A stretch of 32,000 nt of DNA from Flavobacteriaceae bacterium (GCA_965224465.1 OZ245049.1:660001-692000); one strand, 5' to 3'. Shown: positions 1 to 22,216, counted from the first letter of the stretch. Numbers and translations are program-made. Notes: generated from the sequence alone by a model not told the origin.

Positions 1-2135
1 GTAAATAAAAAATTCTGTTCATAGCTACGGGATACTAAAATAAGCCCTGTATTTATGACTCCTGCCTTATCAATAGCTGTTTTAGCCATTGTTTGTAATT
101 GAACATCGTTATATAAAGTATTAGTACCGGTTTTAAGAAAAATAACCAATACCTTATTCCCTGTATGATACTGTAATAACCGTAGTTTATCTTCGTATAC
201 CTGAAGTTTAGATGCTTCTAATAGTGAATTATTTCCTATAAAACCAAAATGTTTAATCTCTCTATTTGGCGGGTATTCCGTTGCACTGTCATTTATTTCA
301 CTATATAACAAGGCAAACTTCTCATTAACGGCATTTTGATGTGTTTCTAATATGGAGTCATAGTATGTAAATTGTTTGCATTTGTTCCCTTTAGGTTTTT
401 CTTTACAGTTTACAGCTATCGTTTTAGTTATAATTTTTGAAGTAGAATCAATTTTCTTTCCTTTATGTTTTTTTGCCTCTTTCCATGTTGTTTGGTATAA
501 TTTATTATTACATGGAGCTATATAGTGAAACCAATATACCTTTTTACTTTCATCAGATAAATCCACCAATTTAATCGGTAATTTTTCACCTCCAAAAACA
601 TAATCATTTCCATTTGCTACATATTCTTTTCCTTTAAAATTAATCCCCCTTACCGCACCTTGCGGGATGTTAGTAGCATTGGGAACAGAACTTATAGAAG
701 AATACGTAATAGAATTATTAACAAATGTAAAAGGCTGCCAATTAGCAGTTAAAAATACACGCTTTGATAATTCCCCTTCACTATCCCCATCAAAAACCCC
801 AATCCTCAATTTCGGATTGTGTATGGCTTTCCAATGTACATAAGGTAAATGCTCTCCTTTGTTATAATCTAGTAACCAATTGGTACTTCCTGTAGCATAT
901 TTATAACTATGAGAAGAAAACGGGTGTTTTAGCTGGAAGGCACCGTGGGCGAGTTCGTGTGCTACGGTTATCCCCCCAGCCCCCGAAGGGGGAGAATTTG
1001 CGGTAAAAATATAACCGAATTGTCTGCCTAATGGCATGAGTCCTTTTTCTCCTGCGGTGCTGGGCTGTTTGTCTGTTAAGATTAAATAATAAGCTTCAGG
1101 GTTAAAGTTACCATGCTCTTTTAATGCCTTATTTATACTACGCTGTTGCTCTGTGTATTGCGCTGCAAAGCCACTTTCTCCACTTTTTATAGTGCCGTCT
1201 GGTGTTAAACTGTTTAGGGTCGCTGTAAAATCGTTAATTACAGAAATATTTAGGCTAACTGCTGCTTGTTGGTAAATAGCTTTTAGTTTTTTTGTAATGG
1301 CACTTGTATTCGCTTTTGAAGTATTTACCAATACTACGACCACTTCCTTTATGGCAATTTGGTATTGCATAAAAGCCCCTGCTATTTGGTATTTATCGCC
1401 TTGTTTTACTAAGGCTTGGGTTTCTATATCGGCATCGCTTAGCGTTCCTTTTAATTTCAACGTATAGGAAGTACTAGTACTATCTACTTTTTTCAGTCCT
1501 ACACCATCTTTGGTTTTAAAAATAATGTCTTGAGGTTTTATACTATCGTTGGTAATTTTAAAATTGGCAACAATAAATTCTACCGTCCCTTTAGCTACCG
1601 CTTTGTAAGGCATGTAATAAGCTGACCCTAACTTTTTGTACAAGTCCTTGGTTTGTGGCTGGCTTGGGCTGTAGGCGTCGAATCCAGTAGGCAGTGTTGC
1701 AGTAGGCAGTTGGGTGAACGTTACGGTGACACCTTGTGCGGTGATGTTGGTGGCTTCTCCTTTGCTGTTTACGCCTGTGGTATTTTCCACAGTGGTAGTA
1801 CCGCCTTCGGCTTGTGGACCTAATTCGGTTACATTTCCTTGTTCGTCTACATGGTATTTTTTTGGTAGTACTGGTGGTTTTGCTTTAGGGTCTCCGCTGT
1901 CGGTTATTATATAGTCCTCGCCTCCAGATAATTCTACAATAGGTGCACCGCCTTTTCCTACTAATAATATATCTCCGTTGCTAGGGTCTACTAGGATTTC
2001 TGCTATTTGGAAGTTTACCTGTTTCACTGCATACGTTCCTTGCTGTTTTTGGATAGGGTGCTGCTGTGCTACTGCTATTTGAAAAAAGCAGGAACATAGG
2101 AATAGTAGGATTGTATGTAGGTTTTTATGTGGCAA
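1..2135 (-). CDS. Giant secreted polymorphic-toxin paralog 1; only the N-terminal ~711 codons are present, the 3' part runs off the left window edge
   Basis: Absent from the ORF track because it is open to the window edge. Nt 1-2128 are near-identical to 12248-14390 (paralog 3) and 771-2205 to 6171-7605 (paralog 2). It has the same TTG start context (caa at 2133-2135), the same signal peptide, and the HELAH codons at 945-959. Confidence 0.8.
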   Translation of the reverse strand, partial: MPHKNLHTILLFLCSCFFQIAVAQQHPIQKQQGTYAVKQVNFQIAEILVDPSNGDILLVGKGGAPIVELSGGEDYIITDSGDPKAKPPVLPKKYHVDEQGNVTELGPQAEGGTTTVENTTGVNSKGEATNITAQGVTVTFTQLPTATLPTGFDAYSPSQPQTKDLYKKLGSAYYMPYKAVAKGTVEFIVANFKITNDSIKPQDIIFKTKDGVGLKKVDSTSTSYTLKLKGTLSDADIETQALVKQGDKYQIAGAFMQYQIAIKEVVVVLVNTSKANTSAITKKLKAIYQQAAVSLNISVINDFTATLNSLTPDGTIKSGESGFAAQYTEQQRSINKALKEHGNFNPEAYYLILTDKQPSTAGEKGLMPLGRQFGYIFTANSPPSGAGGITVAHELAHGAFQLKHPFSSHSYKYATGSTNWLLDYNKGEHLPYVHWKAIHNPKLRIGVFDGDSEGELSKRVFLTANWQPFTFVNNSITYSSISSVPNATNIPQGAVRGINFKGKEYVANGNDYVFGGEKLPIKLVDLSDESKKVYWFHYIAPCNNKLYQTTWKEAKKHKGKKIDSTSKIITKTIAVNCKEKPKGNKCKQFTYYDSILETHQNAVNEKFALLYSEINDSATEYPPNREIKHFGFIGNNSLLEASKLQVYEDKLRLLQYHTGNKVLVIFLKTGTNTLYNDVQLQTMAKTAIDKAGVINTGLILVSRSYEQNFLF

Positions 2136-2179
2136 TATTTAGTTGTTTATCATTTTTTTTTGTTCTATTTGCATCGCTG

Positions 2180-2347
2180 CTAAGTCGGGAGACTTTGCGG
2201 AGCGGGGGTACTAGAGGTAACTTTACTATTAGCTACTGTTTTCTCCAAAGTAATTGTTTTATTTTTAAGGGTTTCAACAGTATTAAAACCAACAAACAGC
2301 AGTAAATTAAAGACTGCAACAACCAATATATAACCACTTTTTAGCAT
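2180..2347 (-). CDS. Possible 55-aa single-pass membrane peptide (MLKSGYILVVAVFNLLLFVGFNTVETLKNK...), below the ORF-track size cut-off
   Basis: Hand-translated. Its ATG (2345-2347) overlaps the stop of the upstream immunity gene in a TAATG arrangement. It has one hydrophobic helix. No equivalent ORF follows the orphan immunity gene at 7677, so it may be spurious. Confidence 0.25.
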   Translation of the reverse strand: MLKSGYILVVAVFNLLLFVGFNTVETLKNKTITLEKTVANSKVTSSTPAPQSLPT

Positions 2348-3357
2348 TAAACTATTTTGTTATTTTCTTCTTTTTCGAAAATGTGGAGAGTATTACTGTC
2401 ATCCAATAAATATAGCTTTCCTTTATGATACTCTATAGATTGTATTCTAACAAAAGTTTCTGATGGAAAATCTTCTAATAGTTCCAACTCCTGGTTTTCC
2501 GTATTAAAAAAACCAAACTTTACTTTTTCTCCTATTTGTCCTACAAACCATAGTTTGTTTTCGGAATATAAGTTTTTGTGAATTATAAAATCTTCCTGAA
2601 ATAAATCCGACACCTCTTTTTCTAAAACAACCTCTCCGTTTATAGGATTAAACACTTGGTATAATTTATTACTGCACCCATAAAGTAAATTTTCAAAACG
2701 ATTAAAGCAATGAGCTATTATAAACTTATCATTAATATTAACTTCAAAATACTCTTTCCAAAGAACTTCTCCTGAATCTTTATTTATCCCAACTAAAAAT
2801 TGATTGTCTTTTTCATTATAAGCTTCAATAAATAACACATCATCTATTACTTTTGGAGATAAATAGATAGTATAACCATCAGGTAATTGGTAGTTCCAGA
2901 GTCTTTTCCCGTTTAATGAATTTCTTAGATAAAATTTAGTTTTATCAAACCTTTCACTACAGAAAATAAGGCCTTTTATTGGAGTAATAGAATCAGTACC
3001 AGTATATGTCCATAATAGATTATAATTAAAATCAAATAAAGAATATTTTTTTTCCTTACGAGATAGTCTTTTCCTCCCAAATAAAACATTTTCTGAAACT
3101 ATTTTAAGTCCATCAAGCCCTTCGATACAAAATTTCTCAATTAGCTTATCATTAATAACTTTAAATAACTTTGAATTATCAAAAAAATATAAATCATTAT
3201 TTAAAGAAGAAAATTTCAACAGAGATAAATATTTCTTAAAACATATACCATTAATATAAGTTTTATCACCTTCTGCCAATGCATATAAAATATTTCCTGA
3301 AATATTTTTTAACCATGCACTACTTTGTCCCTTTATTTGTATATGTTTTCTTATCAT
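2347..3357 (-). CDS. Putative immunity protein for toxin paralog 2 (336 aa, possibly beta-propeller / PQQ-BamB-like repeats)
   Basis: The start overlaps the toxin stop (TAATG at 3355-3359). Repeated G-x-x-LW strand motifs (GKRLWNYQLP, GEVLWKEYF). Same size as the 339-aa ORF at 7677-8696 and the same C-terminal TLHIFEKEENN. The immunity role is inferred from position only. Confidence 0.6.
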   Translation of the reverse strand: MIRKHIQIKGQSSAWLKNISGNILYALAEGDKTYINGICFKKYLSLLKFSSLNNDLYFFDNSKLFKVINDKLIEKFCIEGLDGLKIVSENVLFGRKRLSRKEKKYSLFDFNYNLLWTYTGTDSITPIKGLIFCSERFDKTKFYLRNSLNGKRLWNYQLPDGYTIYLSPKVIDDVLFIEAYNEKDNQFLVGINKDSGEVLWKEYFEVNINDKFIIAHCFNRFENLLYGCSNKLYQVFNPINGEVVLEKEVSDLFQEDFIIHKNLYSENKLWFVGQIGEKVKFGFFNTENQELELLEDFPSETFVRIQSIEYHKGKLYLLDDSNTLHIFEKEENNKIV

Positions 3358-6300
3358 TATTGTTTTATAAGTTTAAATATATTTTCGAATTGACTTTCGA
3401 TTAAATCTTTTAATTCATCTGCGGTTTCAACTTGGAATTTATCAAATAACCTTTGATTTAAAGGTAAACCGTCAATTGCTTTTAGCATGTTTTCTTTAAA
3501 ATTCGGAGGATTTTTAGTACCGTTAAATATCCATTTTATATCGTCTAAGGATTGTGCATTGTTTAAGTCCTTTATAAATTGTTCGTTAAAATGACCTGGC
3601 GGCACCTTCTTAACTGATTTGAATTCGTAATATTTTACCCTTCGACTATTTGTAATATCAGCAACATCTACAAAGCGAGCTCCTCCAATATTTGTATAGT
3701 ATTCAAATTTGAGACTTTTACCTGAAAAATCATCTGAATGTTTACCTAAATAATAAACAATCCAATTGGCACCATCACTTTTAGCCTTTCCTTGTTTTAA
3801 ATCGCTTAAAACTTTATAAAAATCTTCTAGAATAATGTTTTTACCCGCTACATTTCTCCCGAAATCATCTAAATTCTTAACTACTGTTGAGTATGGTAAT
3901 CCATCTGCTCCTTTTAAAGACGTCAAAACTTCATCACTTAAACTAAGTGCTTTGAATGCAGGGCTTTTGCGTATGTCAGCAAAGGATTCCACAGCATCTG
4001 CTTTTTTAAACAATGGGTCGGAAACAGATTGTGGTTTCTCATATCGCTTTCTCAATAACTGCCAACTCTCTGCCAATTCTCCTCTTCGTGCAGCGTTTTC
4101 TCCTGTGCTTACAAATAATTTGCTTAAGCTGTTGGAAGTGTTAATGTCGGTTTTTAGGAGTGTTTTCTCTGCATCTGTTAATATAGTACTTGGAATCTCA
4201 TCAATCCAAGAGGGAATCTTAGATACCACCGTTGCGAGTTCATCCAATTGGCTTTTTATAAGTTGGGGGTTCGTATTGTTTTTTACATCGTTTAGGTCTA
4301 GCTTATTTATAAGTTTACGGTCTCCACTATGAATAACCGATGTAAGATGGAAATCTTCTGGATTTATTTCTGACAACCTTACCCTTTCTAGCGAAAAACC
4401 ATTAGTATTGTTCGCTTTCCTTGCTACGATACCATATAAATCATCAATCTTTCTCCCTGCTTTTAGACCTCCTTTTATATAGGCAGCACCAAAAAAAGGT
4501 ACAGCAGCTGACGCAGTATAAATAGTAAAATTTGTAGTATCGCTTCTTAGCCCAGCATATATTGCTCCAATAGGATCCGTTACAGTATCTGCTCCGGGCC
4601 ACATTCCTACAACGTCTAAAGTTCCATACATTACATCATCGAATAGAAATATTCCTTGAAAATCATAGAATTGCTCATCGGTTAACTCAGGGCTTAAATC
4701 AAGTGCAATTTCTACACCACTCCACCAAGTCCATTCTTCAACTGTTTCTTTCCATAGTCTAAATGTGTAGTTACCTTGTGTCTTTATCTCTATTGGACTA
4801 TCTGATTTTCCATTAGAACCATCAAAGTCCATATATACCTCTCTGAATTTTGCAATTTTATTTATATCCAACTTTTCCCAAAGAGACATATTAGCCAAGC
4901 CTCCTTGTTCTATTTCTACGGTTAATCCTTGCTCAATAAAGGAATTTACGCCTTTAATACATTCCGTGTATGTATTATTACTGTCTAAATAACAATTTCC
5001 ATCATGTTCACCACAGTGTGATAAATTTTCATTACGAGCTGAAAGACATGCTCTTTGCTTGTTGTAGGCTTCTTTAAATGATTTTGACCGATAAAAGGAA
5101 AGTGTCTTTATAAAAGTGGCTCCTCTAACATCATCTTTTGATTGATATAAATAATTCTGCAAGATTCCATCAGCATATTGATAGTATTTATTTACAATTA
5201 CTGGCTTTTTAATTGAAGCATATATACTCAATAAATACTCCAAACTATTACCATTTTTTCTAATAATGTTTTCATCAAACAATCCTTCATTGCTTTGGAT
5301 ATAAGCTGTTTCAGAGCACACAGTTGTAGACACTCCAAATAAGGATTCAAAAGGAGAACCATTAATAAGTACAAATACTATTTTTTTACTTTTATCAACA
5401 CTTTCCAATGCTTTATTCGCTATTTCACGCAACTGTGTGCTAGTGTATATGTTGTTGTTTTCGGTTCTTAATAAGCCTAGCACAAAATATGTATCTGTAT
5501 AATGGCTCAGTAAATGAAACTTATCCTCTAGTACATCCCATTGTTTTTCATTATCTGGTAACAACGAATTAGCTCCATCACTCAGAGAAAAAATATGCTT
5601 AAATTGCCCTTTAGTTCTATGCTTCGAAACCTTTGATTGATTAATTTCTGCTATTGCTTTTAATAATGATGTTTTTATTTCCCTTACAATACTATTATCA
5701 ACAATCAAATCATGGTTCATTTGTCTGCACCTAACATTTCCTTCCTCTTGTTTATTACCTGGTCTTATATCACATGTTCTAGCCGCTTCATACACTTGAC
5801 CTGTCGCCTGATTATTTACATGTACATTGTTTTCCGCATCAATATAAACTAACCTTGGTTCTTGATTAGTCTCTTCAAATTTATCAAACTTTATTTTTTG
5901 TCCTTTTTCATCTTTAACAAATGCTCCATTTCTATATTTCCAATAATATTTTTTATTATTACCTCTTATGGGATAAAATATATCACCCGACGAAAGTTCT
6001 CTTATTATAGAAATTCTTCCTATAGCTTCAGGGGTTTTAGAACCGACAAATGCAACAGGAACGTACCCTGCTCCTAAAATTATTGCATTCCCATATAGAT
6101 CTAAATAAGCATAATTTCTATTTTGGTACTCAACAGGAACACATACATAATCAAGTTTATCAAAGCTATATTCCCCTTCACCATCCCCATCAAAAATCCC
6201 AATCCTCAATTTCGGATTGTGTATGGCTTTCCAATGTACATAAGGTAAATGCTCTCCATTGTTATAATCTAGTAACCAATTGGTACTTCCTGTAGCATAT

Positions 6301-7535
6301 TTATAACTATGCGTAGAGAATGGATGTTTTAGTTGGAAGGCACCGTGGGCGAGTTCGTGTGCTACGGTTATCCCCCCAGCCCCAGAAGGGGGAGAATTTG
6401 CGGTAAAAATATAACCGAATTGTCTGCCTAATGGCATGAGTCCTTTTTCTCCTGCGGTGCTGGGCTGTTTGTCTGTTAAGATTAAATAATAAGCTTCAGG
6501 GTTAAAGTTACCATGCTCTTTTAATGCCTTATTTATACTACGCTGTTGCTCTGTGTATTGCGCTGCAAAGCCACTTTTTCCACTTTTTATAGTGCCGTCT
6601 GGTGTTAGACTGTTTAGGGTCGCTGTAAAATCGTTAATTACAGAAATATTTAGGCTAACTGCTGCTTGTTGGTAAATAGCTTTTAGTTTTTTTGTAATGG
6701 CACTTGTATTCGCATTTGAAGTATTTACCAATACTACGACCACTTCCTTTATGGCAATTTGGTATTGCATAAAAGCCCCTGCTATTTGGTATTTATCGCC
6801 TTGTTTTACTAAGGCTTGGGTTTCTATATCGGCATCGCTTAGCGTTCCTTTTAATTTTAAGGTGTAAGAAGTACTAGTACTATCTACTTTTTTCAGTCCT
6901 ACACCATCTTTGGTTTTAAAAATAATGTCTTGAGGTTTTATACTATCGTTGGTAATTTTAAAATTGGCAACAATAAATTCTACCGTCCCTTTAGCTACCG
7001 CTTTGTAGGGCATGTAATAATTTGCTCCCAACTTTTTGTACAAGTCCTTGGTTTGTGGCTGGCTTGGGCTGTAGGCGTCGAATCCAGTGGGCAGTGTTGC
7101 AGTAGGCAGTTGGGTGAACGTTACGGTGACACCTTGTGCGGTGATGTTGATGGCTTCTCCTTTGCTGTTTACGCCTGTGGTGTTTTCCACAGTGGTAGTA
7201 CCGCCTTCGGCTTGTGGACCTAATTCGGTTACATTTCCTTGTTCGTCTACATGGTGTTTTTTTGGTAGTACTGGTGGTTTTGCTTTGGAATCTCCGCTAT
7301 CGGTTATTATATAGTCCTCTCCTCCAGATAATTCTACAATAGGTGCACCGCCTTTTCCTACTAATAATATATCTCCGTTGCTTGGGTCTACTAGGATTTC
7401 TGCTATTTGGAAGTTCACCTGTTTTACTACATACGTTCCCTGCTGTTTTTGGATAGGGTTCTGCTGTGCTACTGCTATTTGAAAAAAGCAGGAACATAGG
7501 AATAGTAGGATTGTATGTAGGTTTTTATGTGGCAA
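3357..7535 (-). CDS. Giant secreted polymorphic toxin paralog 2 (1392 aa): signal peptide, zincin HEXXH domain, divergent middle region, nuclease-like C-terminal tip
   Basis: TTG start. Signal peptide MPHKNLHTILLFLCSCFFQIAVA/QQ. HELAH at residues 393-397 (nt 6345-6359). Residues 1-455 are near-identical to paralogs 1 and 3 and then diverge after GIFDGDGEGE. The ELAESW junction lies at nt 4062-4079. The last ~240 aa contain FVDVAD...YYEFKS, a D...ExK pattern. Confidence 0.8.
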   Translation of the reverse strand: MPHKNLHTILLFLCSCFFQIAVAQQNPIQKQQGTYVVKQVNFQIAEILVDPSNGDILLVGKGGAPIVELSGGEDYIITDSGDSKAKPPVLPKKHHVDEQGNVTELGPQAEGGTTTVENTTGVNSKGEAINITAQGVTVTFTQLPTATLPTGFDAYSPSQPQTKDLYKKLGANYYMPYKAVAKGTVEFIVANFKITNDSIKPQDIIFKTKDGVGLKKVDSTSTSYTLKLKGTLSDADIETQALVKQGDKYQIAGAFMQYQIAIKEVVVVLVNTSNANTSAITKKLKAIYQQAAVSLNISVINDFTATLNSLTPDGTIKSGKSGFAAQYTEQQRSINKALKEHGNFNPEAYYLILTDKQPSTAGEKGLMPLGRQFGYIFTANSPPSGAGGITVAHELAHGAFQLKHPFSTHSYKYATGSTNWLLDYNNGEHLPYVHWKAIHNPKLRIGIFDGDGEGEYSFDKLDYVCVPVEYQNRNYAYLDLYGNAIILGAGYVPVAFVGSKTPEAIGRISIIRELSSGDIFYPIRGNNKKYYWKYRNGAFVKDEKGQKIKFDKFEETNQEPRLVYIDAENNVHVNNQATGQVYEAARTCDIRPGNKQEEGNVRCRQMNHDLIVDNSIVREIKTSLLKAIAEINQSKVSKHRTKGQFKHIFSLSDGANSLLPDNEKQWDVLEDKFHLLSHYTDTYFVLGLLRTENNNIYTSTQLREIANKALESVDKSKKIVFVLINGSPFESLFGVSTTVCSETAYIQSNEGLFDENIIRKNGNSLEYLLSIYASIKKPVIVNKYYQYADGILQNYLYQSKDDVRGATFIKTLSFYRSKSFKEAYNKQRACLSARNENLSHCGEHDGNCYLDSNNTYTECIKGVNSFIEQGLTVEIEQGGLANMSLWEKLDINKIAKFREVYMDFDGSNGKSDSPIEIKTQGNYTFRLWKETVEEWTWWSGVEIALDLSPELTDEQFYDFQGIFLFDDVMYGTLDVVGMWPGADTVTDPIGAIYAGLRSDTTNFTIYTASAAVPFFGAAYIKGGLKAGRKIDDLYGIVARKANNTNGFSLERVRLSEINPEDFHLTSVIHSGDRKLINKLDLNDVKNNTNPQLIKSQLDELATVVSKIPSWIDEIPSTILTDAEKTLLKTDINTSNSLSKLFVSTGENAARRGELAESWQLLRKRYEKPQSVSDPLFKKADAVESFADIRKSPAFKALSLSDEVLTSLKGADGLPYSTVVKNLDDFGRNVAGKNIILEDFYKVLSDLKQGKAKSDGANWIVYYLGKHSDDFSGKSLKFEYYTNIGGARFVDVADITNSRRVKYYEFKSVKKVPPGHFNEQFIKDLNNAQSLDDIKWIFNGTKNPPNFKENMLKAIDGLPLNQRLFDKFQVETADELKDLIESQFENIFKLIKQ

Positions 7536-7605
7536 TATTTATTTGTTTATCATTTTTTTTTGTTCTATTTGCATCGCCGCTAAGTCGGGAGACTTTGCGG
7601 AGTGG
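6171..7605. repeat. Conserved toxin N-terminal block plus ~70 nt upstream, paralog 2 copy
   Basis: Near-identical to 771-2205. The coding part is near-identical to 13019-14390, which carries a 15-nt indel. Identity ends abruptly at the GEGE codons (6171). Confidence 0.9.
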
Positions 7606-7676
7606 GTTTTTATAATTCCTAATAATTCATCCGTTAAGCCTAGTTTATCTTTTACTGCTTTTGGTAACTTTCTAGT

Positions 7677-8696
7677 TTAAACTACAATGTTATTTTCTTC
7701 TTTTTCAAAAATATGGAGAGTGTTATCTTGGGTCTGAATATAAATGCGATTAGCATTCACATGAATACTCCCAATACCTCCATTTTCTGGTATAAATTCA
7801 TGTTTAAAAACTAGGTTTTTAGAATTCATATCTAAAACCCCAACTTTTGATTTATTATCTCCTAGTGTTTGTGTAAAATAGAAACAATCGTTTTTTACTG
7901 CACATCTATGGTCATGAATAGAATCAAAACCATTTTCTTTAATAAGGATATTAACATCCCATTCTTCTATTTCATTAGTAATAACATTGACTTTACATAA
8001 GATATTTTCAAATTTTGTGGTATAGATAAAATTGTTGTCTTTAAAAATACTAAATCCAAATCCATTATGCTTATATAGAACCTTTCCCGAATGCGCATCT
8101 AAACAAAATAAAGCGCCTTGCTCGTCTCCTGATACTGTAAAATAAATTTTATCAGATAATTCCAATATTTTACTACTTAAATAGGCTTTTTCTGAGTTAA
8201 TTAAATCAGAAAAATCGTGTTTCCAAGTTACACCCCTTGATTCAAAGCTATTAAACACTATTAAACCAGTATTATATCTGGAATCACCCGCTTGTATAAC
8301 ACCATAATTAGTAAATAATTTTTGTCCTCCATTTTGAAGGATAGGGATCTCTATAATTTTATCTGATTTAAAGATAATTTTACCTCTTTTTTTATAGGAT
8401 GCATAAGCAGTGTATTTAACGGAAAACACATAATAAAGATTTCCTTCAATTATAGCCTCTTGTCCGTCTTTGAAAGAATAGAAAAACGTTTTTTTATCTT
8501 GAAAATAATATATTCCATTCTTGTATCGACCAATTTGATTGGTTCTTTTAGATAACTGAATACTTGTCAGTAGATTATGTTGATTGTTATTTTCATATAC
8601 TAAAAGTTTGTTTTCAGTATTTTTAATACAAATTATATCTTTATCCATTAAAAGAATACCCGTATTTATCTTAATTGAGATATTAAATTTTATCAT
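7677..8696 (-). CDS. Putative immunity protein of the orphan toxin cassette (339 aa, same family as 2347-3357)
   Basis: Overlaps the end of the orphan toxin-tip reading frame by 4 nt. Shares size and the C-terminal TLHIFEKEENN with the 336-aa ORF. The 3'-terminal ~50 nt are highly similar to 2347-2400. Confidence 0.6.
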   Translation of the reverse strand: MIKFNISIKINTGILLMDKDIICIKNTENKLLVYENNNQHNLLTSIQLSKRTNQIGRYKNGIYYFQDKKTFFYSFKDGQEAIIEGNLYYVFSVKYTAYASYKKRGKIIFKSDKIIEIPILQNGGQKLFTNYGVIQAGDSRYNTGLIVFNSFESRGVTWKHDFSDLINSEKAYLSSKILELSDKIYFTVSGDEQGALFCLDAHSGKVLYKHNGFGFSIFKDNNFIYTTKFENILCKVNVITNEIEEWDVNILIKENGFDSIHDHRCAVKNDCFYFTQTLGDNKSKVGVLDMNSKNLVFKHEFIPENGGIGSIHVNANRIYIQTQDNTLHIFEKEENNIVV

Positions 8697-9522
8697 AAAA
8701 AAATTAATTTAAAATTAGAATCAACGAAGTTATCGATATGAATATTAGTTATTATATCATCAAGTTCATCAAAATTAAAAAAGTTTCTGAACTTTTTAGA
8801 TTTAATTTCGTCAACCCCATCAATTATACTTTGAATTGAACCCTTATTTTCTTTCAACCAGGTCTTTAACTTTTCCGCAGTCATTTCTGTTTTATCCATA
8901 CGATATTGAATTTCATTTAAATTATCCGCGTTAAACAAATCTCGTTCAATAAATTGCTCTTTTATAGTTTTACTAGATATACTTCCTGGTCCACTTTTGT
9001 ATTCTGTTTTTAAATTTCCGGGTGTACAATTAACACAAAACAAATCAATACTCGAATCATTATTAGTAGCTCTTGCATTGGGTACAGAATGCTCAAACCT
9101 AAGCTTTTTCCCTGCAAACTCTTTCCCGTTTGCATTTAAATCCCTTAAAACCCAATGTGCTCCTTGCTTTTGATTGTTGGTACCATTTTTAAAGGTACTT
9201 ACTATTTTATCAAATTATCTATGGTTGTGTTTGGGTTCTGATGTACGAATTGACCAAACTTATTTAAATCGTTTAACACATCGGCATAAGATGCAGAAAG
9301 TGTTCCCGTTTTATATCCATTTAAAGACGCTAAAACTTCATCACTCAAACCAAGGGGTTCGAATGCAGGGCTTTTTCGTATGTCTGCCAAGGCCTGTATA
9401 GCATCCGTATTTCTTGTTAAGCCTATTGCTGGGTTATTCCCTCCTGTTCTTTTATTTATGTGTAATAACTGCCAACTCTCTGCCAATTCAAGTTTCTGAG
9501 CGGGTTCAATAATTATAAAACG
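8693..9522 (-). pseudogene. Orphan (N-terminally truncated, frameshifted) toxin C-terminal cassette, homologous to the tip of paralog 2
   Basis: The frame is open from the stop of the upstream gene: ...PAQKLELAESWQLLH...ADIRKSPAFEPLGLSDEVLASL... (ORF 9202-9486). It continues in the -1 frame as FDKIVSTFKNGTNNQKQGAHWV...SSIDLFCVNC...KTEYKSG (to 8693). This aligns with paralog 2 residues ELAESWQLLRK...ADIRKSPAFKALSLSDEVLTSL...EDFYKVLSDLKQGKAKSDGANWIV...YYEFKS. The frameshift is at the T3 run (plus-strand aaa, 9212-9214). There is no start codon, signal peptide or N-terminal region. Confidence 0.75.
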
Positions 9523-10251
9523 TTATAAAACTGAACCATCTATTTGTAAAACACTACCATCAGAAATATTATATTTACTAGTCATAACCAATAATTTCTT
9601 CTTTAGTTTGGTGTAATACGGATGCCATTCAGTTAATCCTTCTTCTTCATCAAACATCAATGAATCTACCCATTTCAATCTTCTTTCAAACTCTGGATCA
9701 TTACATAGTTTTGAGATAATCAATAATCTAAAAAGCCATGCTGCCCCACCTGCTATAATTTCATGCCCATATTTCCCATCTACTTCTAATTGATTTACCT
9801 TTGCTAAAATATTCGGTAAAAAACTGTAATGTTCTACAAATTTAAACCCCGACTTTTCTAAATAATTTACTAGCCAATCAGCAAATTCTTCAACCTCCTC
9901 CTTCTTTTTAAAGAAATTGTACATGTATTTATTTTTGAATAAAGTCTTAAAACTAAAATCTTTTACAGAGTTTAAAAAAAGTTCATCTTTAGGCTTATAA
10001 CTAATTAGCGTATTTGTTGGTATCCCAATGTTCAGAATAACATCTTCTACTTCAAAAATTGAAGGCATTAAAGAACTAGCTCCAATAGTTCCATTTTCAT
10101 TAAAATTAAACACACAAAAATAAACCTTGTCATCAAACCTTTTGAGATAGCTTAGACCTGGTCTAGAATTTAATAATTTATAACTTCTTTCTAATAACAA
10201 GAAATTTAACCTATCAAATATAATTTTTTTTCTTACTTTTTTTTCAATCAT
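9523..10251 (-). CDS. Putative immunity protein for toxin paralog 3 (242 aa, no recognisable motif)
   Basis: The ATG directly abuts the stop of the 1381-aa toxin ORF, on the same strand. Role inferred from position only. Confidence 0.55.
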   Translation of the reverse strand: MIEKKVRKKIIFDRLNFLLLERSYKLLNSRPGLSYLKRFDDKVYFCVFNFNENGTIGASSLMPSIFEVEDVILNIGIPTNTLISYKPKDELFLNSVKDFSFKTLFKNKYMYNFFKKKEEVEEFADWLVNYLEKSGFKFVEHYSFLPNILAKVNQLEVDGKYGHEIIAGGAAWLFRLLIISKLCNDPEFERRLKWVDSLMFDEEEGLTEWHPYYTKLKKKLLVMTSKYNISDGSVLQIDGSVL

Positions 10252-13200
10252 TTAATTTACTTTTTTAATTAGTTCAATTGTTAAATTATCTATATCGTTT
10301 GCTGAGCCATGATCTGCAATTTTAAATATTTTTTGGTTAGATACCTTAAGAATATCATTTTCATTAAGATCAAATTCTAATTTAGTGTACTTCAATTTCA
10401 TCTCAGTTTGTCCATTAATAATAGCTCCAAAACCTTCTTTTTGTCGAATAGTAAATCCTGTTTTTTGACTCAATTTATTTTCAATGATAATAACATCTAT
10501 AATTTCATTTGTAGATTTACTTCTTTTTATTAGTACAATATCTGCTTTCATAAATCCATTTTTAGTTATTAATGGTATTTCCGTCAAAACTTGATAATCT
10601 TCTAGTCTCTTAATTCCAATACTATTTGTTAACTTAGCAATAAATGAAGGATTACTTTTATCGTTTATAAGTGTAACAATATTTTCTCCCAATTTCCTTC
10701 CTTCTGCAGAATAATGTTGAAATCGTTCAATATTCTTACTGCGTTTAATCCAATTTGACAGTTTAGTATCTTCATTTCGTCTTAATACTTCACCAATGAT
10801 ATCAAACTCATCAATACTAAGGTTCGCCCCTTTATGTGAGGTGATTCCTTTAACATATACTATATTTTCTTCTTTATTTAAAAGATTTAAAAACTCTTCA
10901 TCACAATCATCAATAAACTTAGATAAAGTAGATTTACCATCTACATCTGTTAATCTTTTTATCAAATTTTGATTACTCTTATTTAATTTACTGAATTTCT
11001 CAATTTTAATAGGGTCGGTTTTGACAAAAGATTTTGGATTAAATTTATGTAATACTTTCCAACTCTCTGCCAATTCAAGTTTCTGAGCAGGACTTTTACC
11101 ATCAAACAAGATACGTAAACCGCTATTTATATCGGTTTTTAAGGCCTTTTTTAATTCGTCCGTAAAAGAGATAGGTAAATCGGATAAAAAGTTGAGTAAG
11201 TTGTCTATTTTCTCCAATGGTAAACCATCAACTCTAGCCCATTGCTTAGCCTCATCCAAATTAGCACTCATGGAGGATGAAAAATGTTTTTCACCTTTGC
11301 TTAGATCTACAATATAATTAGGATCATGTATCGAAAAATGAGTTATAATCTTGCTATTATCTGTATGTGATATAATTTTAAATCGTTTGGCAGATTTTAA
11401 TGCAAATACGCCGTATTGTGTTACTCCAACCGCTACAACACTAACACCATACATACTAGCCTCTACGTAATCTCGTTCTTTGATTGCATAGATTATACCT
11501 ATAGCGTCGGGTATAAAATCTAAGCCTGTTGGGGCGAGCATTAAGGAAGCTACATCAATTTTATCGTACACCAATTGTTTTTCATCAACAACTTTATACA
11601 GATGTTCATTTGTTAATGCGAAATACTGCCCATCGGCAAATTTTACATTTGCCATATAATTTGATAAAAAATCCGATTTGTATTTATCAAAATGGAATTT
11701 TGCATAACTAATTCCTATATGTTCTAAACCTGCCTTTTTTACACTTGCGATATAAGGTTCTCTTAAATTTACAGGGTTATTATCTACAGGTAGATAATAA
11801 TTCTCAGACTTATTTACAAAAGCTAATCTATCATTTTCAATTGCTTTTTTAAGTTCCTGTTCATACCCCTCTTTCCAAATCCTGTACTTTTCAATATATT
11901 CGGGTCGTAATATAATACCGTATCCATCACCAGTTTTAACGCTTTTAAAAGGATTTGGTCTCTTTGCTTCTATTCTTTTTACTGCATCAAAAGAGGGACT
12001 TTTTAATAATACCAAATGATTGATAAATGGATAGCCCTTTACATGTGTATTATTTGCTTTATAGATAGATTTTATTTCTCCCGATGCATTAAAAATTACA
12101 AATTGTAATTGTACAGGCTTTGGAATTTCTTTGTAGAAATTTAAAAAATCACTATTAAAACTCTCTTTCTCTTTAAAATTAAACGATACCGATTCAAGTT
12201 CACCATTTCCATAACCACTACTATTATAACAATCAGTTGTATAATCGGTAAATAAAAAATTCTGTTCATAGCTACGGGATACTAAAATAAGCCCTGTATT
12301 TATGACTCCTTCCTTATCAATAGCTGTTTTAGCCATTGTTTGTAATTGAACATCGTTATATAAAGTATTAGTACCGGTTTTAAGAAAAATAACCAATACC
12401 TTATTTCCTGTATGATACTGTAATAACCGTAGTTTATCTTCGTATACCTGAAGTTTAGATGCTTCTAATAGTGAATTATTTCCTATAAAACCAAAATGTT
12501 TAATCTCTCTATTTGGCGGGTATTCCGTTGCACTGTCATTTATTTCACTATATAACAAGGCAAACTTCTCATTAACGGCATTTTGATGTGTTTCTAATAT
12601 GGAGTCATAGTATGTAAATTGTTTGCATTTGTTCCCTTTAGGTTTTTCTTTACAGTTTACAGCTATCGTTTTAGTTATAATTTTTGAAGTAGAATCAATT
12701 TTCTTTCCTTTATGTTTTTTTGCCTCTTTCCATGTTGTTTGGTATAATTTATTATTACATGGAGCTATATAGTGAAACCAATATACCTTTTTACTTTCAT
12801 CAGATAAATCCACCAATTTAATCGGTAATTTCTCACCTCCAAAAACATAATCATTTCCATTTGCTACATATTCTTTTCCTTTAAAATTAATCCCCCTTAC
12901 CGCACCTTGCGGGATGTTAGTAGCATTGGGAACAGAACTTATAGAAGAATACGTAATAGAATCATTAACAAATGTAAAAGGCTGCCAATTAGCAGTTAAA
13001 AATACACGCTTTGATAATTCCCCTTCACCATCCCCATCAAAAATCCCAATCCTCAATTTCGGATTGTGTATGGCTTTCCAATGTACATAGGGTAAATGCT
13101 CTCCTTTGTTATAATCTAGTAACCAATTGGTACTTCCTGTAGCATATTTATAACTATGAGAAGAAAACGGGTGTTTTAGCTGGAATGCACCGTGGGCGAG

Positions 13201-14397
13201 TTCGTGTGCTACGGTTATCCCCCCAGCCCCAGAAGGGGGAGAATTTGCGGTAAAAATATAACCGAATTGTCTGCCTAGAGGCATTAAACCACTTTCTGTG
13301 TTGCTATTTCCGCTGGCATCCACAGGCTGTTTGTCTGTTAAGATTAAATAATAAGCTTCAGGGTTAAAGTTACCATGCTCTTTTAATGCCTTATTTATAC
13401 TACGCTGTTGCTCTGTGTATTGCGCTGCAAAGCCACTTTCTCCACTTTTTATAGTGCCGTCTGGTGTTAAACTGTTTAGGGTCGCTGTAAAATCGTTAAT
13501 TACAGAAATATTTAGGCTAACTGCTGCTTGTTGGTAAATAGCTTTTAGTTTTTTTGTAATGGCACTTGTATTCGCTTTTGAAGTATTTACCAATACTACG
13601 ACCACTTCCTTTATGGCAATTTGGTATTGCATAAAAGCCCCTGCTATTTGGTATTTATCGCCTTGTTTTACTAAGGCTTGGGTTTCTATATCGGCATCGC
13701 TTAGCGTTCCTTTTAATTTCAACGTATAGGAAGTACTAGTACTATCTACTTTTTTCAGTCCTACACCATCTTTGGTTTTAAAAATAATGTCTTGAGGTTT
13801 TATACTATCGTTGGTAATTTTAAAATTGGCAACAATAAATTCTACCGTCCCTTTAGCTACCGCTTTGTAAGGCATGTAATAAGCTGACCCTAACTTTTTG
13901 TACAAGTCCTTGGTTTGTGGCTGGCTTGGGCTGTAGGCGTCGAATCCAGTAGGCAGTGTTGCAGTAGGCAGTTGGGTGAACGTTACGGTGACACCTTGTG
14001 CGGTGATGTTGGTGGCTTCTCCTTTGCTGTTTACGCCTGTGGTATTTTCCACAGTGGTAGTACCGCCTTCGGCTTGTGGACCTAATTCGGTTACATTTCC
14101 TTGTTCGTCTACATGGTATTTTTTTGGTAGTACTGGTGGTTTTGCTTTAGGGTCTCCGCTGTCGGTTATTATATAGTCCTCGCCTCCAGATAATTCTACA
14201 ATAGGTGCACCGCCTTTTCCTACTAATAATATATCTCCGTTGCTAGGGTCTACTAGGATTTCTGCTATTTGGAAGTTTACCTGTTTCACTGCATACGTTC
14301 CTTGCTGTTTTTGGATAGGGTGCTGCTGTGCTACTGCTATTTGAAAAAAGCAGCTGCATAGGAATAATAGGATTGTATGTAGGTTTTTAGGATTCAA
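10252..14397 (-). CDS. Giant secreted polymorphic toxin paralog 3 (1381 aa): signal peptide, HEXXH domain, divergent middle region, different nuclease-like C-terminal tip
   Basis: TTG start. Signal peptide MNPKNLHTILLFLCSCFFQIAVA/QQ. HELAH codons at 13192-13206. ELAESW at 11059-11076. The tip contains ADIVLIKRSKSTNEIIDVIIIENKLS, a D...ENK pattern. Confidence 0.8.
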   Translation of the reverse strand: MNPKNLHTILLFLCSCFFQIAVAQQHPIQKQQGTYAVKQVNFQIAEILVDPSNGDILLVGKGGAPIVELSGGEDYIITDSGDPKAKPPVLPKKYHVDEQGNVTELGPQAEGGTTTVENTTGVNSKGEATNITAQGVTVTFTQLPTATLPTGFDAYSPSQPQTKDLYKKLGSAYYMPYKAVAKGTVEFIVANFKITNDSIKPQDIIFKTKDGVGLKKVDSTSTSYTLKLKGTLSDADIETQALVKQGDKYQIAGAFMQYQIAIKEVVVVLVNTSKANTSAITKKLKAIYQQAAVSLNISVINDFTATLNSLTPDGTIKSGESGFAAQYTEQQRSINKALKEHGNFNPEAYYLILTDKQPVDASGNSNTESGLMPLGRQFGYIFTANSPPSGAGGITVAHELAHGAFQLKHPFSSHSYKYATGSTNWLLDYNKGEHLPYVHWKAIHNPKLRIGIFDGDGEGELSKRVFLTANWQPFTFVNDSITYSSISSVPNATNIPQGAVRGINFKGKEYVANGNDYVFGGEKLPIKLVDLSDESKKVYWFHYIAPCNNKLYQTTWKEAKKHKGKKIDSTSKIITKTIAVNCKEKPKGNKCKQFTYYDSILETHQNAVNEKFALLYSEINDSATEYPPNREIKHFGFIGNNSLLEASKLQVYEDKLRLLQYHTGNKVLVIFLKTGTNTLYNDVQLQTMAKTAIDKEGVINTGLILVSRSYEQNFLFTDYTTDCYNSSGYGNGELESVSFNFKEKESFNSDFLNFYKEIPKPVQLQFVIFNASGEIKSIYKANNTHVKGYPFINHLVLLKSPSFDAVKRIEAKRPNPFKSVKTGDGYGIILRPEYIEKYRIWKEGYEQELKKAIENDRLAFVNKSENYYLPVDNNPVNLREPYIASVKKAGLEHIGISYAKFHFDKYKSDFLSNYMANVKFADGQYFALTNEHLYKVVDEKQLVYDKIDVASLMLAPTGLDFIPDAIGIIYAIKERDYVEASMYGVSVVAVGVTQYGVFALKSAKRFKIISHTDNSKIITHFSIHDPNYIVDLSKGEKHFSSSMSANLDEAKQWARVDGLPLEKIDNLLNFLSDLPISFTDELKKALKTDINSGLRILFDGKSPAQKLELAESWKVLHKFNPKSFVKTDPIKIEKFSKLNKSNQNLIKRLTDVDGKSTLSKFIDDCDEEFLNLLNKEENIVYVKGITSHKGANLSIDEFDIIGEVLRRNEDTKLSNWIKRSKNIERFQHYSAEGRKLGENIVTLINDKSNPSFIAKLTNSIGIKRLEDYQVLTEIPLITKNGFMKADIVLIKRSKSTNEIIDVIIIENKLSQKTGFTIRQKEGFGAIINGQTEMKLKYTKLEFDLNENDILKVSNQKIFKIADHGSANDIDNLTIELIKKVN
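12248..14390. repeat. Paralog 3 segment repeated at 1-2128 (N-terminal block plus ~250 codons of the middle region)
   Basis: Read by eye: position 1 aligns with 12248, with scattered SNPs and one replaced patch (1021-1085 versus 13261-13340). Confidence 0.9.
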
Positions 14398-14415
14398 TTA
14401 TTATTTATTTTGTTT

Positions 14416-15057
14416 TTATAGTTGCCGTGCAGCTGCGGTAGTTTCTACTTCTTCAAAAACACAGCCTTTGAAATTATTGGCCTCCAGAGCTCTCCTTAAA
14501 TCTTCCCTTACAAATATTATTGTTGATTTTTCTTTCGTTCTAAAAATAGCAGGAAAGCCTTCTTTTGGTTCTTTTAAAACTAATTTTTTGATTCCTCTTA
14601 CTCCCTTTGAACTATATTTTGGAACTCTATAAACAGAATTTTCAAAATCAAAGTAACTATCCAGTTTGGGTAATCTTAATGCTAAATAATCTTCATTTGT
14701 TGGGATAGAATTATTTAACTCTAAATTATTCAAGAACCTATCTTTCAGACAAGTATCATCAAACATTATAACAGGAACTACATTGAATTTGAATTCGATG
14801 AATTTTTCAAAAACTTCCTTGACTTTTTTACTAACAATAAATATTCCTGAATTTGTAAAAGGAAAGTCAAACTTTGGTATATGAAAAAAATTAGCATCAA
14901 AATACAAATTATTCGGAAGTAATTCTACGTCATATAAGTTAGGGTTTGAAAAATAATAACATACTTTATCACTACCTTCAAAAGGCAAAAGTATAGCATC
15001 ATAATCAGGATCTGTTTTTCTGTTAGTATTTAATATTATTTTAAATTTTTTTGTCAT
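14416..15057 (-). CDS. Hypothetical protein, possibly an Imm11/Imm43 (DUF1629)-like immunity protein
   Basis: 213-aa ORF lying 18 nt upstream of toxin paralog 3. The C-terminal pattern FPAIFRTKEKSTIIFVREDLRRALEANNFKGCVFEEVE resembles, from memory, the ...FR....v.e.....l.....G..F..v ending of DUF1629-type immunity proteins. Unverified. Confidence 0.4.
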   Translation of the reverse strand: MTKKFKIILNTNRKTDPDYDAILLPFEGSDKVCYYFSNPNLYDVELLPNNLYFDANFFHIPKFDFPFTNSGIFIVSKKVKEVFEKFIEFKFNVVPVIMFDDTCLKDRFLNNLELNNSIPTNEDYLALRLPKLDSYFDFENSVYRVPKYSSKGVRGIKKLVLKEPKEGFPAIFRTKEKSTIIFVREDLRRALEANNFKGCVFEEVETTAAARQL

Positions 15058-15160: not shown

Positions 15161-15325
15161 TCACGCAGACTTGAAATCCGTGCGTCCCCTCATACACAAC
15201 AACTAACCCATAAATAACATACAAATATCTAATGCATTTTTTAAGATTTGCATGAGCAGCCTTATGTGATGTACTTTGTGGGCACGGATTTCAACCTTAA
15301 ATCCGCATGTCTAGACACAAAATAA

Positions 15326-15358
15326 ACCGCAAGACCTTTGTTTACAAAGGCTTGCGGT
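15326..15358 (+). terminator. Strong hairpin inside the IS left end, upstream of the transposase start (possible read-through blocker)
   Basis: accgcaag(a)cctttg-ttta-caaaggcttgcggt: a 14-bp stem with one bulge and a 4-nt loop, followed by a partly T-rich stretch. Confidence 0.35.
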
Positions 15359-15402
15359 TCTCAGTATTTTCACCTAAATTGGTGTTACGCAAAAGACTGA
15401 TT

Positions 15403-16698
15403 ATGAAGGTACTAAATTCAACTCACATTAACCCATTTGGTGGAATAAATTTTGTTTTTGAGGAATTAAACAAGCTTAAAATAGATGAGATTTTATCCGA
15501 TAATTTACCTCCATTACCTACACAATCGAAATATGATTGGAAGGATCTTTTATACTCTTTTTGGTCTATCTACTTTTGCGGAGGAAACTGTATTGAAGAC
15601 TTATCTATCAACCTAGGCAGTCACCTGAGAAACAACCCAATGGTTAAGGTACCTAGTCCTGATAGAGTTTTAGATAGATTTAAGGAACTAGCTATTCCTG
15701 AAGTTCTTTTTTCAGTTCCAAGAGGTAAAAGTCTTCATCAATTTAGTTTACATACAGAATTGAATGAACTTAATTTAAAAATTTTAAAAAAAATAGGATT
15801 ATCAAAAACAGAGAACTACACTTTAGACTACGACAATACTATTATTTTCACAAATAAAGCAGATAGCAGAAGAAGCTATAAAAAAGATTTTGGCTACTGT
15901 CCAGGTGTAGATATCATTGGGAATAACATTGTTTATGTTGAGAACAGAAATGGAAATAGCGATGCAAAAACACTACAATTTCAATCACTCACTAGAATGT
16001 TTTCTCTATTAGAAGAACAAAATATTAATATAGAATCATTTAGGGCAGACGGTGCTTCTTTTCAATACGATATTGTTAAACTAGTTGAAAAAAAGACTAA
16101 AACTTTTTTCCTTAGAGCGGTTATGAGTGGTGCTTTAGCTCAAAGGATTTCCCTTATTGATACTTGGGAAAAAGTAACATTAGGAGGAGAAGAAGCTTAC
16201 CGAGGAGAAATAAAATATACGCCTTTTATTAGAACAGCAAAAAGGAGAAAAAACAACAACAATTTAAAAGAATACCGCTTAGTTGTTACAAAAGTAAAAA
16301 GAGAAGATAATCAAATAAATGCTTTTACTAATGAAGCCTACAACTACTCAGCAGTACTAACAAATGATTATGAGAAAACGGCAACAGAAGTAGTTTTTTT
16401 CTACAATCAAAGAGGAGCTATAGAAAAAGAATTTGATGTTCTTAAAAATGATTTTGGATGGGACAATTTACCTTTTTCAAAACTAGAGCAAAACACAGTT
16501 TTCTTACTGTTTACTGCTATTTTCCGTAATTTATATCATCATATAATTTGTTCCTTCTCAAAAATATATAAAAATTTAAATCCTTCTTTTAGAATTAAAA
16601 AATTCATTTTTAGATTTATTACAACACCTGCAAAATGGATACAAAATGCTAGACAAAATAAACTAAGAGTTTATGGAAAGCTCCTTTACAACACGTAA
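15403..16698 (+). CDS. IS1380-family DDE transposase
   Basis: The ORF track opens at 15307, but that ATG lies inside the terminal IR, so MKVLNSTHINPFGG at 15403 is the likelier start. Blocks match ISEcp1-type transposases as I recall them: TLDYDNT..., FRADGASF..., FYNQRGAIEKEFDVLKNDFGW. Confidence 0.8.
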   Translation: MKVLNSTHINPFGGINFVFEELNKLKIDEILSDNLPPLPTQSKYDWKDLLYSFWSIYFCGGNCIEDLSINLGSHLRNNPMVKVPSPDRVLDRFKELAIPEVLFSVPRGKSLHQFSLHTELNELNLKILKKIGLSKTENYTLDYDNTIIFTNKADSRRSYKKDFGYCPGVDIIGNNIVYVENRNGNSDAKTLQFQSLTRMFSLLEEQNINIESFRADGASFQYDIVKLVEKKTKTFFLRAVMSGALAQRISLIDTWEKVTLGGEEAYRGEIKYTPFIRTAKRRKNNNNLKEYRLVVTKVKREDNQINAFTNEAYNYSAVLTNDYEKTATEVVFFYNQRGAIEKEFDVLKNDFGWDNLPFSKLEQNTVFLLFTAIFRNLYHHIICSFSKIYKNLNPSFRIKKFIFRFITTPAKWIQNARQNKLRVYGKLLYNT

Positions 16699-16979
16699 AA
16701 ACAACGAGTACGTAGCACTAAAACTTATCAGCAATAAAAAAACCTAAAACTTAGGGGAAATAACTACACCCTTCTTTTAAAAATCATTTGATTTTTAAAA
16801 TATGAAAAGTTAAAAAACATCTCTATCAAAAAAAACAATTCAAATATTCAGATTCCTGAAGTTATATATCGATATTAGATTAAATATTAAAGACATGCGG
16901 ATTTAAGGTGCAAATCCGCGCTATCACGTAGAAGGTATGGTCAAGTAGGAACAAGAAATTTCACCTCATTCCTCTCACA

Positions 16980-17013
16980 GAACCGTACGTGACAGTCTCC
17001 CGTCATACGGCTC
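16980..17013 (-). ncRNA. Group II intron domain V
   Basis: The minus strand reads GAGCCGTATGACGGGAGACTGTCACGTACGGTTC: a 34-nt hairpin with the AGC catalytic triad, 12 nt after the maturase stop codon. Confidence 0.85.
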
Positions 17014-17025
17014 TTATTGTACAAC

Positions 17026-17501
17026 CTATACTTCTGCATACCCAACTTGCCAATGATAGAAAAGATATGGATAATGTTTCTGTATTTTTCTCAAATATAC
17101 AAATCCTTTTTTCCTACTCCCTTTAAATCTTTTGTACTTGTTAAGTATCCATTTTACTAACCGATTATGTAAATTCCGAAACACCTTTACGAGACTTCTA
17201 TGACTAAACTTACCGTAATATTGAACCCATCCACGAATTTTTGAATTTAGCTCCTTCGCTATATCTACAAAATTTGCCCCCGTCCATCTATGTAATTGCA
17301 GATCTTTAAAAAAAGCTACTATTTTTGAATATTTAACCGTACTTATTGTACAGTCAAACCCTAAAAACATACCTCCTTTATTAGATGCTTTACTTTCTGG
17401 ACGAAAACTAAAACCAAGAAAATCAAACTTGACTTTCTTACCCTTTAAATTTCTCCGATAGTCTTTACAGTATACAATTACCGTCTTTTCAGGGTGAACT
17501 T
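17026..17501 (-). pseudogene. Group II intron RT/maturase, C-terminal fragment (end of RT domain plus X/maturase domain, no En domain)
   Basis: The frame continues from the IS junction: (LEVHP)EKTVIVYCKDYRRNLKGKKVKFDFLGFSFRPESK...GWVQYYGKFSHRSL...HWQVGYAEV*. Confidence 0.85.
17492..17501. repeat. Left 10-bp target-site duplication (gggtgaactt) of the ISAs1-family IS
   Basis: Identical to 18731-18740. Removing the IS and one TSD copy restores ...QCDLEVHPEKTVIVY... in the RT frame. Confidence 0.9.
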
Positions 17502-18730: not shown

Positions 18731-18740
18731 GGGTGAACTT
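18731..18740. repeat. Right 10-bp target-site duplication (gggtgaactt) of the ISAs1-family IS
   Basis: Identical to 17492-17501 and directly abuts the right IR. Confidence 0.9.
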
Positions 18741-21051: not shown

Positions 21052-21057
21052 GGATTA

Positions 21058-22153: not shown

Positions 22154-22167
22154 AATATCATATTTTG

Positions 22168-22184: not shown

Positions 22185-22216
22185 ATATACAAATAAATAA
22201 GCAAAAAGTATTCCAT

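Follow-up and report, generated by a model that had tools for sequence, protein, structure and literature searches.

Polymorphic toxins diversify by tip swaps at fixed junctions, and two short junction motifs, VENN and the Rhs motif, are key to the annotation of tips, the discovery of orphans and the engineering of chimeras. VENN ends the conserved domain of the delivery protein CdiA, and many unrelated toxin folds follow it. The Rhs motif, PxxxxDPxGL, belongs to an aspartyl autoprotease, by which the tip is cleaved within a shell. Here we describe an array of polymorphic toxin genes in 32,000 nt of DNA from a Flavobacteriaceae bacterium (GCA_965224465.1 OZ245049.1:660001-692000), which is called the window below and is numbered from its first letter. 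Two toxin genes of the array, par2 and par3, and an orphan tip without scaffold share an 18-mer that encodes the peptide ELAESW. The original prediction, made from the window sequence alone, compared this peptide with the VENN and Rhs motifs and regarded it as an anchor for tip exchange by homologous recombination.

By homology, the par genes can be assigned to the TANFOR/zincin polymorphic toxin class of Bacteroidota, of which they are short forms without TANFOR and FN3. TANFOR-containing polymorphic toxins of Bacteroidetes, with the DNase tip BaCT and the immunity protein BaCTic, were described by Jana, Salomon & Bosis (2020, PMC7073777). The (D/E)xK region is the only part of BaCT described in that paper, which reports no N-terminal motif, shared subdomain, orphans or recombination. 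It is the sole paper on the class and mentions no junction motif, in agreement with the prediction that ELAESW had not been described as a junction. We propose, with a probability of about 0.72, that the helix carrying the motif is a homology patch where tips of TANFOR/zincin-class toxins exchange by homologous recombination.

The repeated 18-mer and the junction of the orphan tip

The 18-mer, GAATTGGCAGAGAGTTGG, was found three times in the window, on the minus strand only (Table 1), and even a search that tolerated up to 3 mismatches gave no further copy in the window. By chance, 0.02 copies would be expected, and three or more copies were obtained in 0 of 100 shuffles, so a chance repeat is ruled out as the origin of the three copies. 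The exact search located them where they had been predicted, amid diverged DNA: when the window was compared with itself by blastn, par2 and par3 were alignable over their 5' 1.4 kb (94.7% identity) and in no other part, and the DNA around the motif was unalignable. Each copy encodes ELAESW in frame, in par2, par3 and the orphan tip.

The five degenerate codons are the same in all three copies, with P of about 2e-4 given the six amino acids and the local codon usage. The shared 18-mer includes two minority codons (TTG, 15%; GAG, 22%), and in other parts of these genes identical residues share their codon at a rate of 0.49-0.67. This agreement in every synonymous choice counts against structural conservation as the whole explanation, which would say that the W and L pack the first helix of the tip, that breakpoints cluster at the motif because chimeras made at a domain edge survive, and that the DNA itself has no special role. 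We regard that explanation as unlikely.

The orphan tip begins with PAQKLELAESW, 15 nt upstream of the 18-mer and right behind the stop codon of imm3. Its junction is chimeric, because 33 nt of it (cc[c/t]gctcagaaactt plus the 18-mer) match par3 with 1 mismatch and 26 nt (the 18-mer plus cagttatt; 9464-9489 in the orphan, 4054-4079 in par2) match par2 exactly, and the two stretches overlap on the 18-mer. The par3-like 5' side and the par2-like 3' side are just as had been predicted. The frame of the orphan is broken at a T-run (9212-9214), where one extra T would restore a full par2-like tip. This frameshift (9205-9215, TTT run) is either a sign of a decayed orphan or a homopolymer sequencing error.

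The main conserved/variable boundary of par2 and par3 lies about 650-700 aa upstream of the motif, at the end of the zincin region (...HWKAIHNPKLRIGIFDGDGEGE, IGIFDGDGEGE). Divergence directly after EGE (...NPKLRIGIFDGDGEGE) was also found in the alleles P0035 and P0073, described below, and in all scaffold homologues, and GDGEGE seems to be the actual demarcation motif of the toxin class at the level of the scaffold. GC content is 0.41 in the N-terminal part and drops to 0.31-0.34 in the middle and 0.25-0.32 in the tips and immunity genes. The architecture points to a two-level modular design with one boundary at GDGEGE, shared by the whole family, and another at the motif: a constant N-terminal part, a variable middle, the junction motif and a variable tip.

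Breakpoints at the motif in other lineages

Breakpoints coincide with the motif in several lineages. P0073, with a BaCT tip, and P0035, with a par3-type tip, are alleles of one locus of an unrelated metagenomic lineage, found in different metagenome samples with the same neighbouring genes. The DNA of the two alleles (L001 and L002) is 96% identical over 2.9 kb and then enters an unalignable stretch. Next comes a 130-nt island of 92% identity, which ends 8 nt past the W codon, and the tips beyond it are unalignable. Locus L015 encodes P0197, a stand-alone toxin with a signal peptide, and its similarity to the long form in L002 starts exactly at the K-S-W codons. From this junction on, the two are 79% identical over 1.5 kb and near-identical at the junction itself, and there is no similarity upstream. 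Both cases speak against a purely structural cause, since the DNA island between the alleles ends at the motif, and identity that starts at K-S-W to the base would be the footprint of a crossover in a homology patch.

The same pattern was found in protein pairs anchored on the W. There were 52 pairs with the same upstream and different downstream sequence (identity of 70% or more over the 40 upstream residues and of 40% or less over the 100 downstream residues), and 34 pairs showed the reverse pattern. In every displayed discordant pair the identity switches at the motif or within a few residues of it. The 86 discordant pairs span at least seven lineages, with separate cases in P0105/P0125, P0112/P0122, P0141/P0178 and P0168/P0185. 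In Polaribacter sp. L3A8, a scaffold gene ends 19 aa past the motif, and next to it are a stand-alone toxin gene with its own motif and a propeller immunity gene. The original prediction placed the motif at the point of tip exchange; the start of the orphan, the two locus comparisons and the 52 + 34 discordant pairs all bear this out.

The motif DNA varies by lineage, being GAAAAYGCTAAAAGCTGG in L001/L002 versus GAATTGGCAGAGAGTTGG in the window. This difference speaks against a recombinase that recognises a specific sequence there and in favour of ordinary, homology-driven exchange among the genes of one pool. The 18-mer could be thought of as the target of a site-specific recombinase, for example of the tyrosine integrases at 22217-24005 and 29786-31574, with cassettes moving as in integrons or shufflons; two integrase gene pairs and other mobile-element genes lie 10-20 kb away, and the three copies are direct repeats. 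Yet the motif DNA is not conserved in other lineages that have the same breakpoints, the 18-mer is non-palindromic and without inverted partner, and the integrases are part of a separate 3.5-kb duplicated element. A metagenome scan with the 18-mer alone gave 36 matches, all in unrelated contexts. We rejected the recombinase target, with its DNA not conserved between lineages and not palindromic, and consider it extremely improbable. The 26-nt junction of the orphan had no match in the metagenome scan. Among 9 loci from a narrow BaCT alignment, none had several motif copies.

Exchange by homologous recombination could proceed as follows. The 18-mer encodes the start of the first alpha-helix of a C-terminal toxin module, made up of a helical subdomain of about 110 aa and a catalytic core, each core type having its own immunity family. 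Being the best-conserved stretch of otherwise diverged tips, the motif would serve as a patch of DNA homology through which paralogues, alleles and incoming DNA exchange tips. In the order of events that we infer for the window, an incoming par3-type tip with imm3 would have been joined at the motif, and an earlier BaCT-type tip with its immunity gene would have been pushed downstream as an orphan, retaining 33 nt of the junction. Recombination may be mechanistically favoured at the motif, so that the breakpoints there would not merely be those of the survivors.

Several points weigh against the exchange of tips at a homology patch. The identity shared by par2 and par3 at the motif is 18 nt, which is short for RecA-dependent exchange. 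Recombination is read here from comparative footprints, and no event was observed directly. One metagenomic lineage accounts for many of the discordant pairs, and these cannot be counted as independent events. The motif is not the sole junction, because P0090 and P0160 have a further breakpoint about 30 aa behind it. Orphan tips do not always start at the motif either: the one in the window retains it, and the BaCT orphan of Hymenobacter montanus, which starts about 107 aa past it, is without these first residues and hence without the motif. Selection for functional chimeras would likewise put the surviving breakpoints at the domain edge, and both the motif DNA that differs between lineages and the other breakpoints suit the structural explanation.

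The tip subdomain, its nuclease cores and their immunity genes

A homologue search with par3 gave 88 proteins, mainly from Flavobacteriaceae (Tenacibaculum, Polaribacter, Oceanihabitans, Gelidibacter and Aquimarina), typically with FN3 and with varied C-terminal toxins: AHH, deaminase, NUC, EndoU-family PF14436 and ADP-ribosyltransferase (ART). In the set of 89 formed by these proteins and the orphan open reading frame (ORF), a motif-like A-x-S-W-x-x-L at the pre-tip position was found in only six: the two window proteins, P0007, P0016, P0035 and P0073. The junction profile did not pick up P0016 (LAKSWEVLL), whose tip is thus left unassigned, and none of the scaffold relatives with other annotated toxins carries the motif. 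An exhaustive profile search with the junction alignment A2 gave 99 protein clusters at 50% identity. The consensus is E-L-[AVI]-[DEK]-[SA]-W-K-x-L, x being [LI], with the W in 75 of 87 sequences and the L at +3 in 71 of 87. The proteins have 290-2656 aa, and the distance from motif to C-terminus in complete tips is 208-356 aa, mostly 235-310 aa.

In the alignment of par3-type tips the W and L of the motif are invariant, as are the catalytic D186 and K208, and in the BaCT alignment the W is at least 90% conserved. Profiles of the BaCT and par3-type tips can be aligned with hhalign over the first ~110 columns only (probability 82%, E 1e-5). In the AlphaFold2 models of the two tips, the motif lies in the first helix. 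The predicted local distance difference test score (pLDDT) was 93.6 and the predicted template modelling score (pTM) 0.90 for the par2 tip, against a pLDDT of 90.5 and a pTM of 0.75 for the par3 tip. In the par2 model this N-subdomain is packed against the nuclease, an alpha/beta core. Sequence and fold searches of the PDB with the tips gave no significant relatives; the weak similarities included PD-(D/E)xK nucleases (Foldseek).

The profiles and models indicate that a helical subdomain of about 110 aa, which is common to both tip types and travels with the tip, opens with the motif as its first helix. Structural conservation draws its support from here, namely from the position of the motif in a confidently modelled helix of a compact fold and from a W as conserved as the catalytic residues. 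It is compatible with an exchange patch, and the two are not exclusive. The original prediction would have been refuted if the motif simply belonged to a conserved structural domain extending on both sides; this is half the case, as the motif is the first helix of the subdomain.

How far does the motif resemble the known junctions? As with VENN and PT-VENN of CdiA, a short peptide stands at the exchange point of tip and immunity gene, and a displaced orphan can keep, as the one in the window does, a stub of the junction that is usable for later recombination. The meeting of conserved and variable sequence at a short motif was found in the window, in L001/L002, in L015/L002 and in the 86 pairs. 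Unlike VENN, ELAESW opens a subdomain owned by the tip, does not occur in scaffold relatives that carry other toxins, and has mainly two nuclease families and a few minor cores behind it. The divide between a conserved body and a variable tip and the orphan tip-immunity pairs downstream are also seen in Rhs/YD-repeat proteins, whereas there is no sign of cleavage at ELAESW and there are no YD repeats. As a part of the tip, ELAESW cannot be equated with VENN or with the Rhs motif. The predicted likeness to these pre-toxin motifs is thus right for the exchange junction and wrong for a motif of the scaffold, with 6 of 89 homologues having it and none of those with other toxins.

Beyond the first 110 residues, the tips fall into two large BLAST groups, par2-type and par3-type. 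With hidden Markov models of the cores, 58 of 98 motif tips were par3-type and 32 par2-type (BaCT), none was both and 8 were other. The hypervariability expected downstream of the motif was found in part: several cores follow it among the 99 clusters, mainly from two nuclease families. The eight tips (P0124; P0180; P0162/P0164; P0165/P0173/P0176/P0181) match neither core, and therefore at least three further catalytic cores stand behind the same N-subdomain. These minor tip types gave no match in Pfam or NCBIfam. In P0180 the start of the subdomain is present twice in tandem.

The par2 and orphan tips belong, by sequence, to the published BaCT PD-(D/E)xK DNase, and DNase activity is predicted for them. 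The supplement of the BaCT paper lists a 1867-aa TANFOR protein of Flavobacterium sp. IR1 with BaCT at 1577-1867 (PMC7073777). This protein is P0098 (PAM94918.1, 1867 aa), which has the motif as LARAWKNL at residue 1606. Against it, the par2 tip shows 30% identity over 215 aa (E 6e-20), and the orphan tip has 49% identity to its BaCT. In the BaCT alignment A5, E133, D145, E159 and K161 are invariant (D...ExK). The par3 tip matches P0098 in the N-subdomain alone (E 0.002), which places it outside the BaCT family. It appears to be a separate, undescribed nuclease core with its own immunity family, the nuclease being predicted.

Tip type and immunity gene family co-vary. In size, the imm2 gene and the orphan immunity gene resemble BaCTic; both give a faint PQQ/BamB propeller signal, and such signals are likewise listed for BaCTic (supplement, PMC7073777). 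The orphan immunity gene shares 27% identity with imm2 and 36% with the immunity gene beside the Hymenobacter BaCT orphan. The par3-type immunity genes (~220-242 aa) are a separate family which co-varies with par3-type tips, and imm3 is 35% identical to the genes behind the par3-type tips in L002 and L015. In L015 there are three imm3-type immunity genes in tandem. The layout in Flavobacterium sp. IR1 is toxin, immunity, a 98-aa BaCT fragment and immunity, as in the window.

Stand-alone toxins of 348-363 aa with their own signal peptide were found in L015 (10001-13254) and L016 (12813-14904), downstream of tip-less scaffold genes. Metagenomic stand-alone toxins have a second, degenerate motif helix (FRAWKIL) ahead of the real one. 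The Hymenobacter montanus locus (L009, 1057-11466) encodes a 2199-aa zincin scaffold with PT-HINT, and two propeller immunity genes, the 5'-truncated BaCT orphan and a third immunity gene are downstream of it.

The motif might instead be a signal for processing or release, marking where the tip is cut, for example by the HExxH domain, or being recognised in export or import, and the DNA identity would then be a by-product. A zincin-like HExxH domain is conserved in every scaffold, and stand-alone secreted toxins retain the motif behind their own signal peptide. The self-cleaving domain PT-HINT lies upstream of the motif in 4 of 34 relatives, with a gap of about 40 aa in the Hymenobacter locus and about 80 aa in P0168, the two that were read; the released fragment would therefore include the motif and start just before it. 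Against such a signal, the motif is modelled in a packed helix, which is an atypical protease site, and a HINT cut would fall about 40 aa upstream of it. We consider this improbable.

A related idea is that the ~110-aa subdomain is a dedicated, transferable adaptor of the class, which the toxin would need to be freed from its zincin scaffold or to enter the target cell, with the W helix as its functional handle. We think this rather doubtful. The two-domain CdiA-CT tips are bipartite in the same manner, with a shared N-terminal helical subdomain and interchangeable catalytic cores, but there is no sequence or fold relationship and an entry function here would be by analogy only. If the adaptor idea is true, the motif delimits the delivered unit, and it would give the first experimental handle on the processing of these toxins.

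Toxin class, gene array and meaning of the motif

For par2, par3 and the orphan there was no Pfam match at E <= 0.1, pre-toxin models (PT-VENN) included. NCBIfam gave no match with par2 and par3, and thus the N-terminal TANFOR (TIGR02542) was not found in them. Their relation to the class is through longer homologues: aa 39-1106 of par2 is 56% identical to aa 527-1585 of P0008, whose N-terminus matches TANFOR weakly, at E 0.006 and short of the family cut-off. Clearer but weak TANFOR matches were found in P0098 and P0005, and the longer homologues match at aa ~40-180. The window proteins start at the equivalent of residue ~500-530 of these homologues. They share with the TANFOR class the central scaffold, the BaCT tips of par2 and the orphan, and immunity genes of BaCTic size; they differ in lacking the ~500-aa TANFOR/FN3 N-terminus, and have a peptide of their own instead (MPHKNLHTILLFLCSCFFQIAVAQQ), which is signal-peptide-like by eye. 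A variable C-terminal tip followed by a gene for an immunity candidate, as expected of the class, was found with two tip types and co-varying small genes.

On the minus strand, the array runs from an Imm11-like gene through par3, imm3, the orphan tip, the orphan immunity gene, par2 and imm2 to the 5' part of par1 (Table 1).

Table 1. Features of the toxin array and of the junctions in the window
Feature	Position (nt)	Strand	Description
par1, 5' part	1-2148	-	Third full-length paralogue; 97.8% identical to par3 12248-14410; tip outside the window
imm2	2347-3357	-	336 aa; immunity candidate for par2; propeller-like, with the size and type of BaCTic
par2	3357-7535	-	1392-aa polymorphic toxin
par2 parts			Signal-peptide-like N-terminus; HExxH zincin-like region, aa 1 to ~458; variable middle, ~459-1150
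par2 tip	3357-4079	-	aa 1153-1392; BaCT-type PD-(D/E)xK
Motif copy 1	4062-4079	-	ELAESW = aa 1153-1158 of par2; start of par2 tip
GDGEGE codons of par2	6171-6188	-	par2 and par3 DNA is near-identical up to here
Orphan immunity gene	7677-8696	-	339 aa, propeller-like
Orphan tip	8693-9504	-	BaCT-type, without scaffold
Motif copy 2	9472-9489	-	Start of orphan tip
33-nt direct repeat, copy 1	9472-9504	-	1 mismatch to its partner 11059-11091
imm3	9523-10251	-	242-aa immunity candidate for par3
par3	10252-14397	-	1381-aa paralogue; N-terminal 460 aa as in par2, middle differs
par3 tip	10252-11076	-	Shared N-subdomain, other nuclease core (D...ExK at ENK)
Motif copy 3	11059-11076	-	ELAESW = aa 1108-1113 of par3; start of par3 tip
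33-nt direct repeat, partner	11059-11091	-	The pair brackets par3 tip and imm3 (1587 bp)
GDGEGE codons of par3	13018-13035	-	Same conserved/variable boundary as in par2
Imm11/Imm43-like immunity gene	14416-15057	-	Directly 5' of par3; no toxin gene before it

Beyond the Imm11/Imm43-like gene there is a transposase gene (15307-16698). Two DDE transposase genes and a truncated reverse-transcriptase ORF, group II intron-like, occupy 15307-19524, between the toxin array and the integrase element. The latter is a 3.5-kb direct repeat of 99.97% identity (20929-24431 and 28498-32000), which carries two tyrosine-integrase genes, a Phd/YefM-like gene and the 3' end of a primase-like gene, and is probably present as two copies of a mobile element. 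An Imm49 gene (27134-27907, minus strand) is preceded by a 236-aa ORF (27910-28620) without family match, and the two (27134-28620, minus strand) may be another pair of toxin remnant and immunity gene.

For the TANFOR/zincin class of Bacteroidota, the family and one tip, BaCT, had been described before. New are a searchable motif which sets the N-terminal edge of BaCT-type tips, a second nuclease core with its own immunity family behind the same N-subdomain, and the documentation of orphan formation and allele swapping at the motif. Nothing known is overturned by these results. The motif can be used for annotation and for the design of chimeras, and its tryptophan is a residue to mutate.

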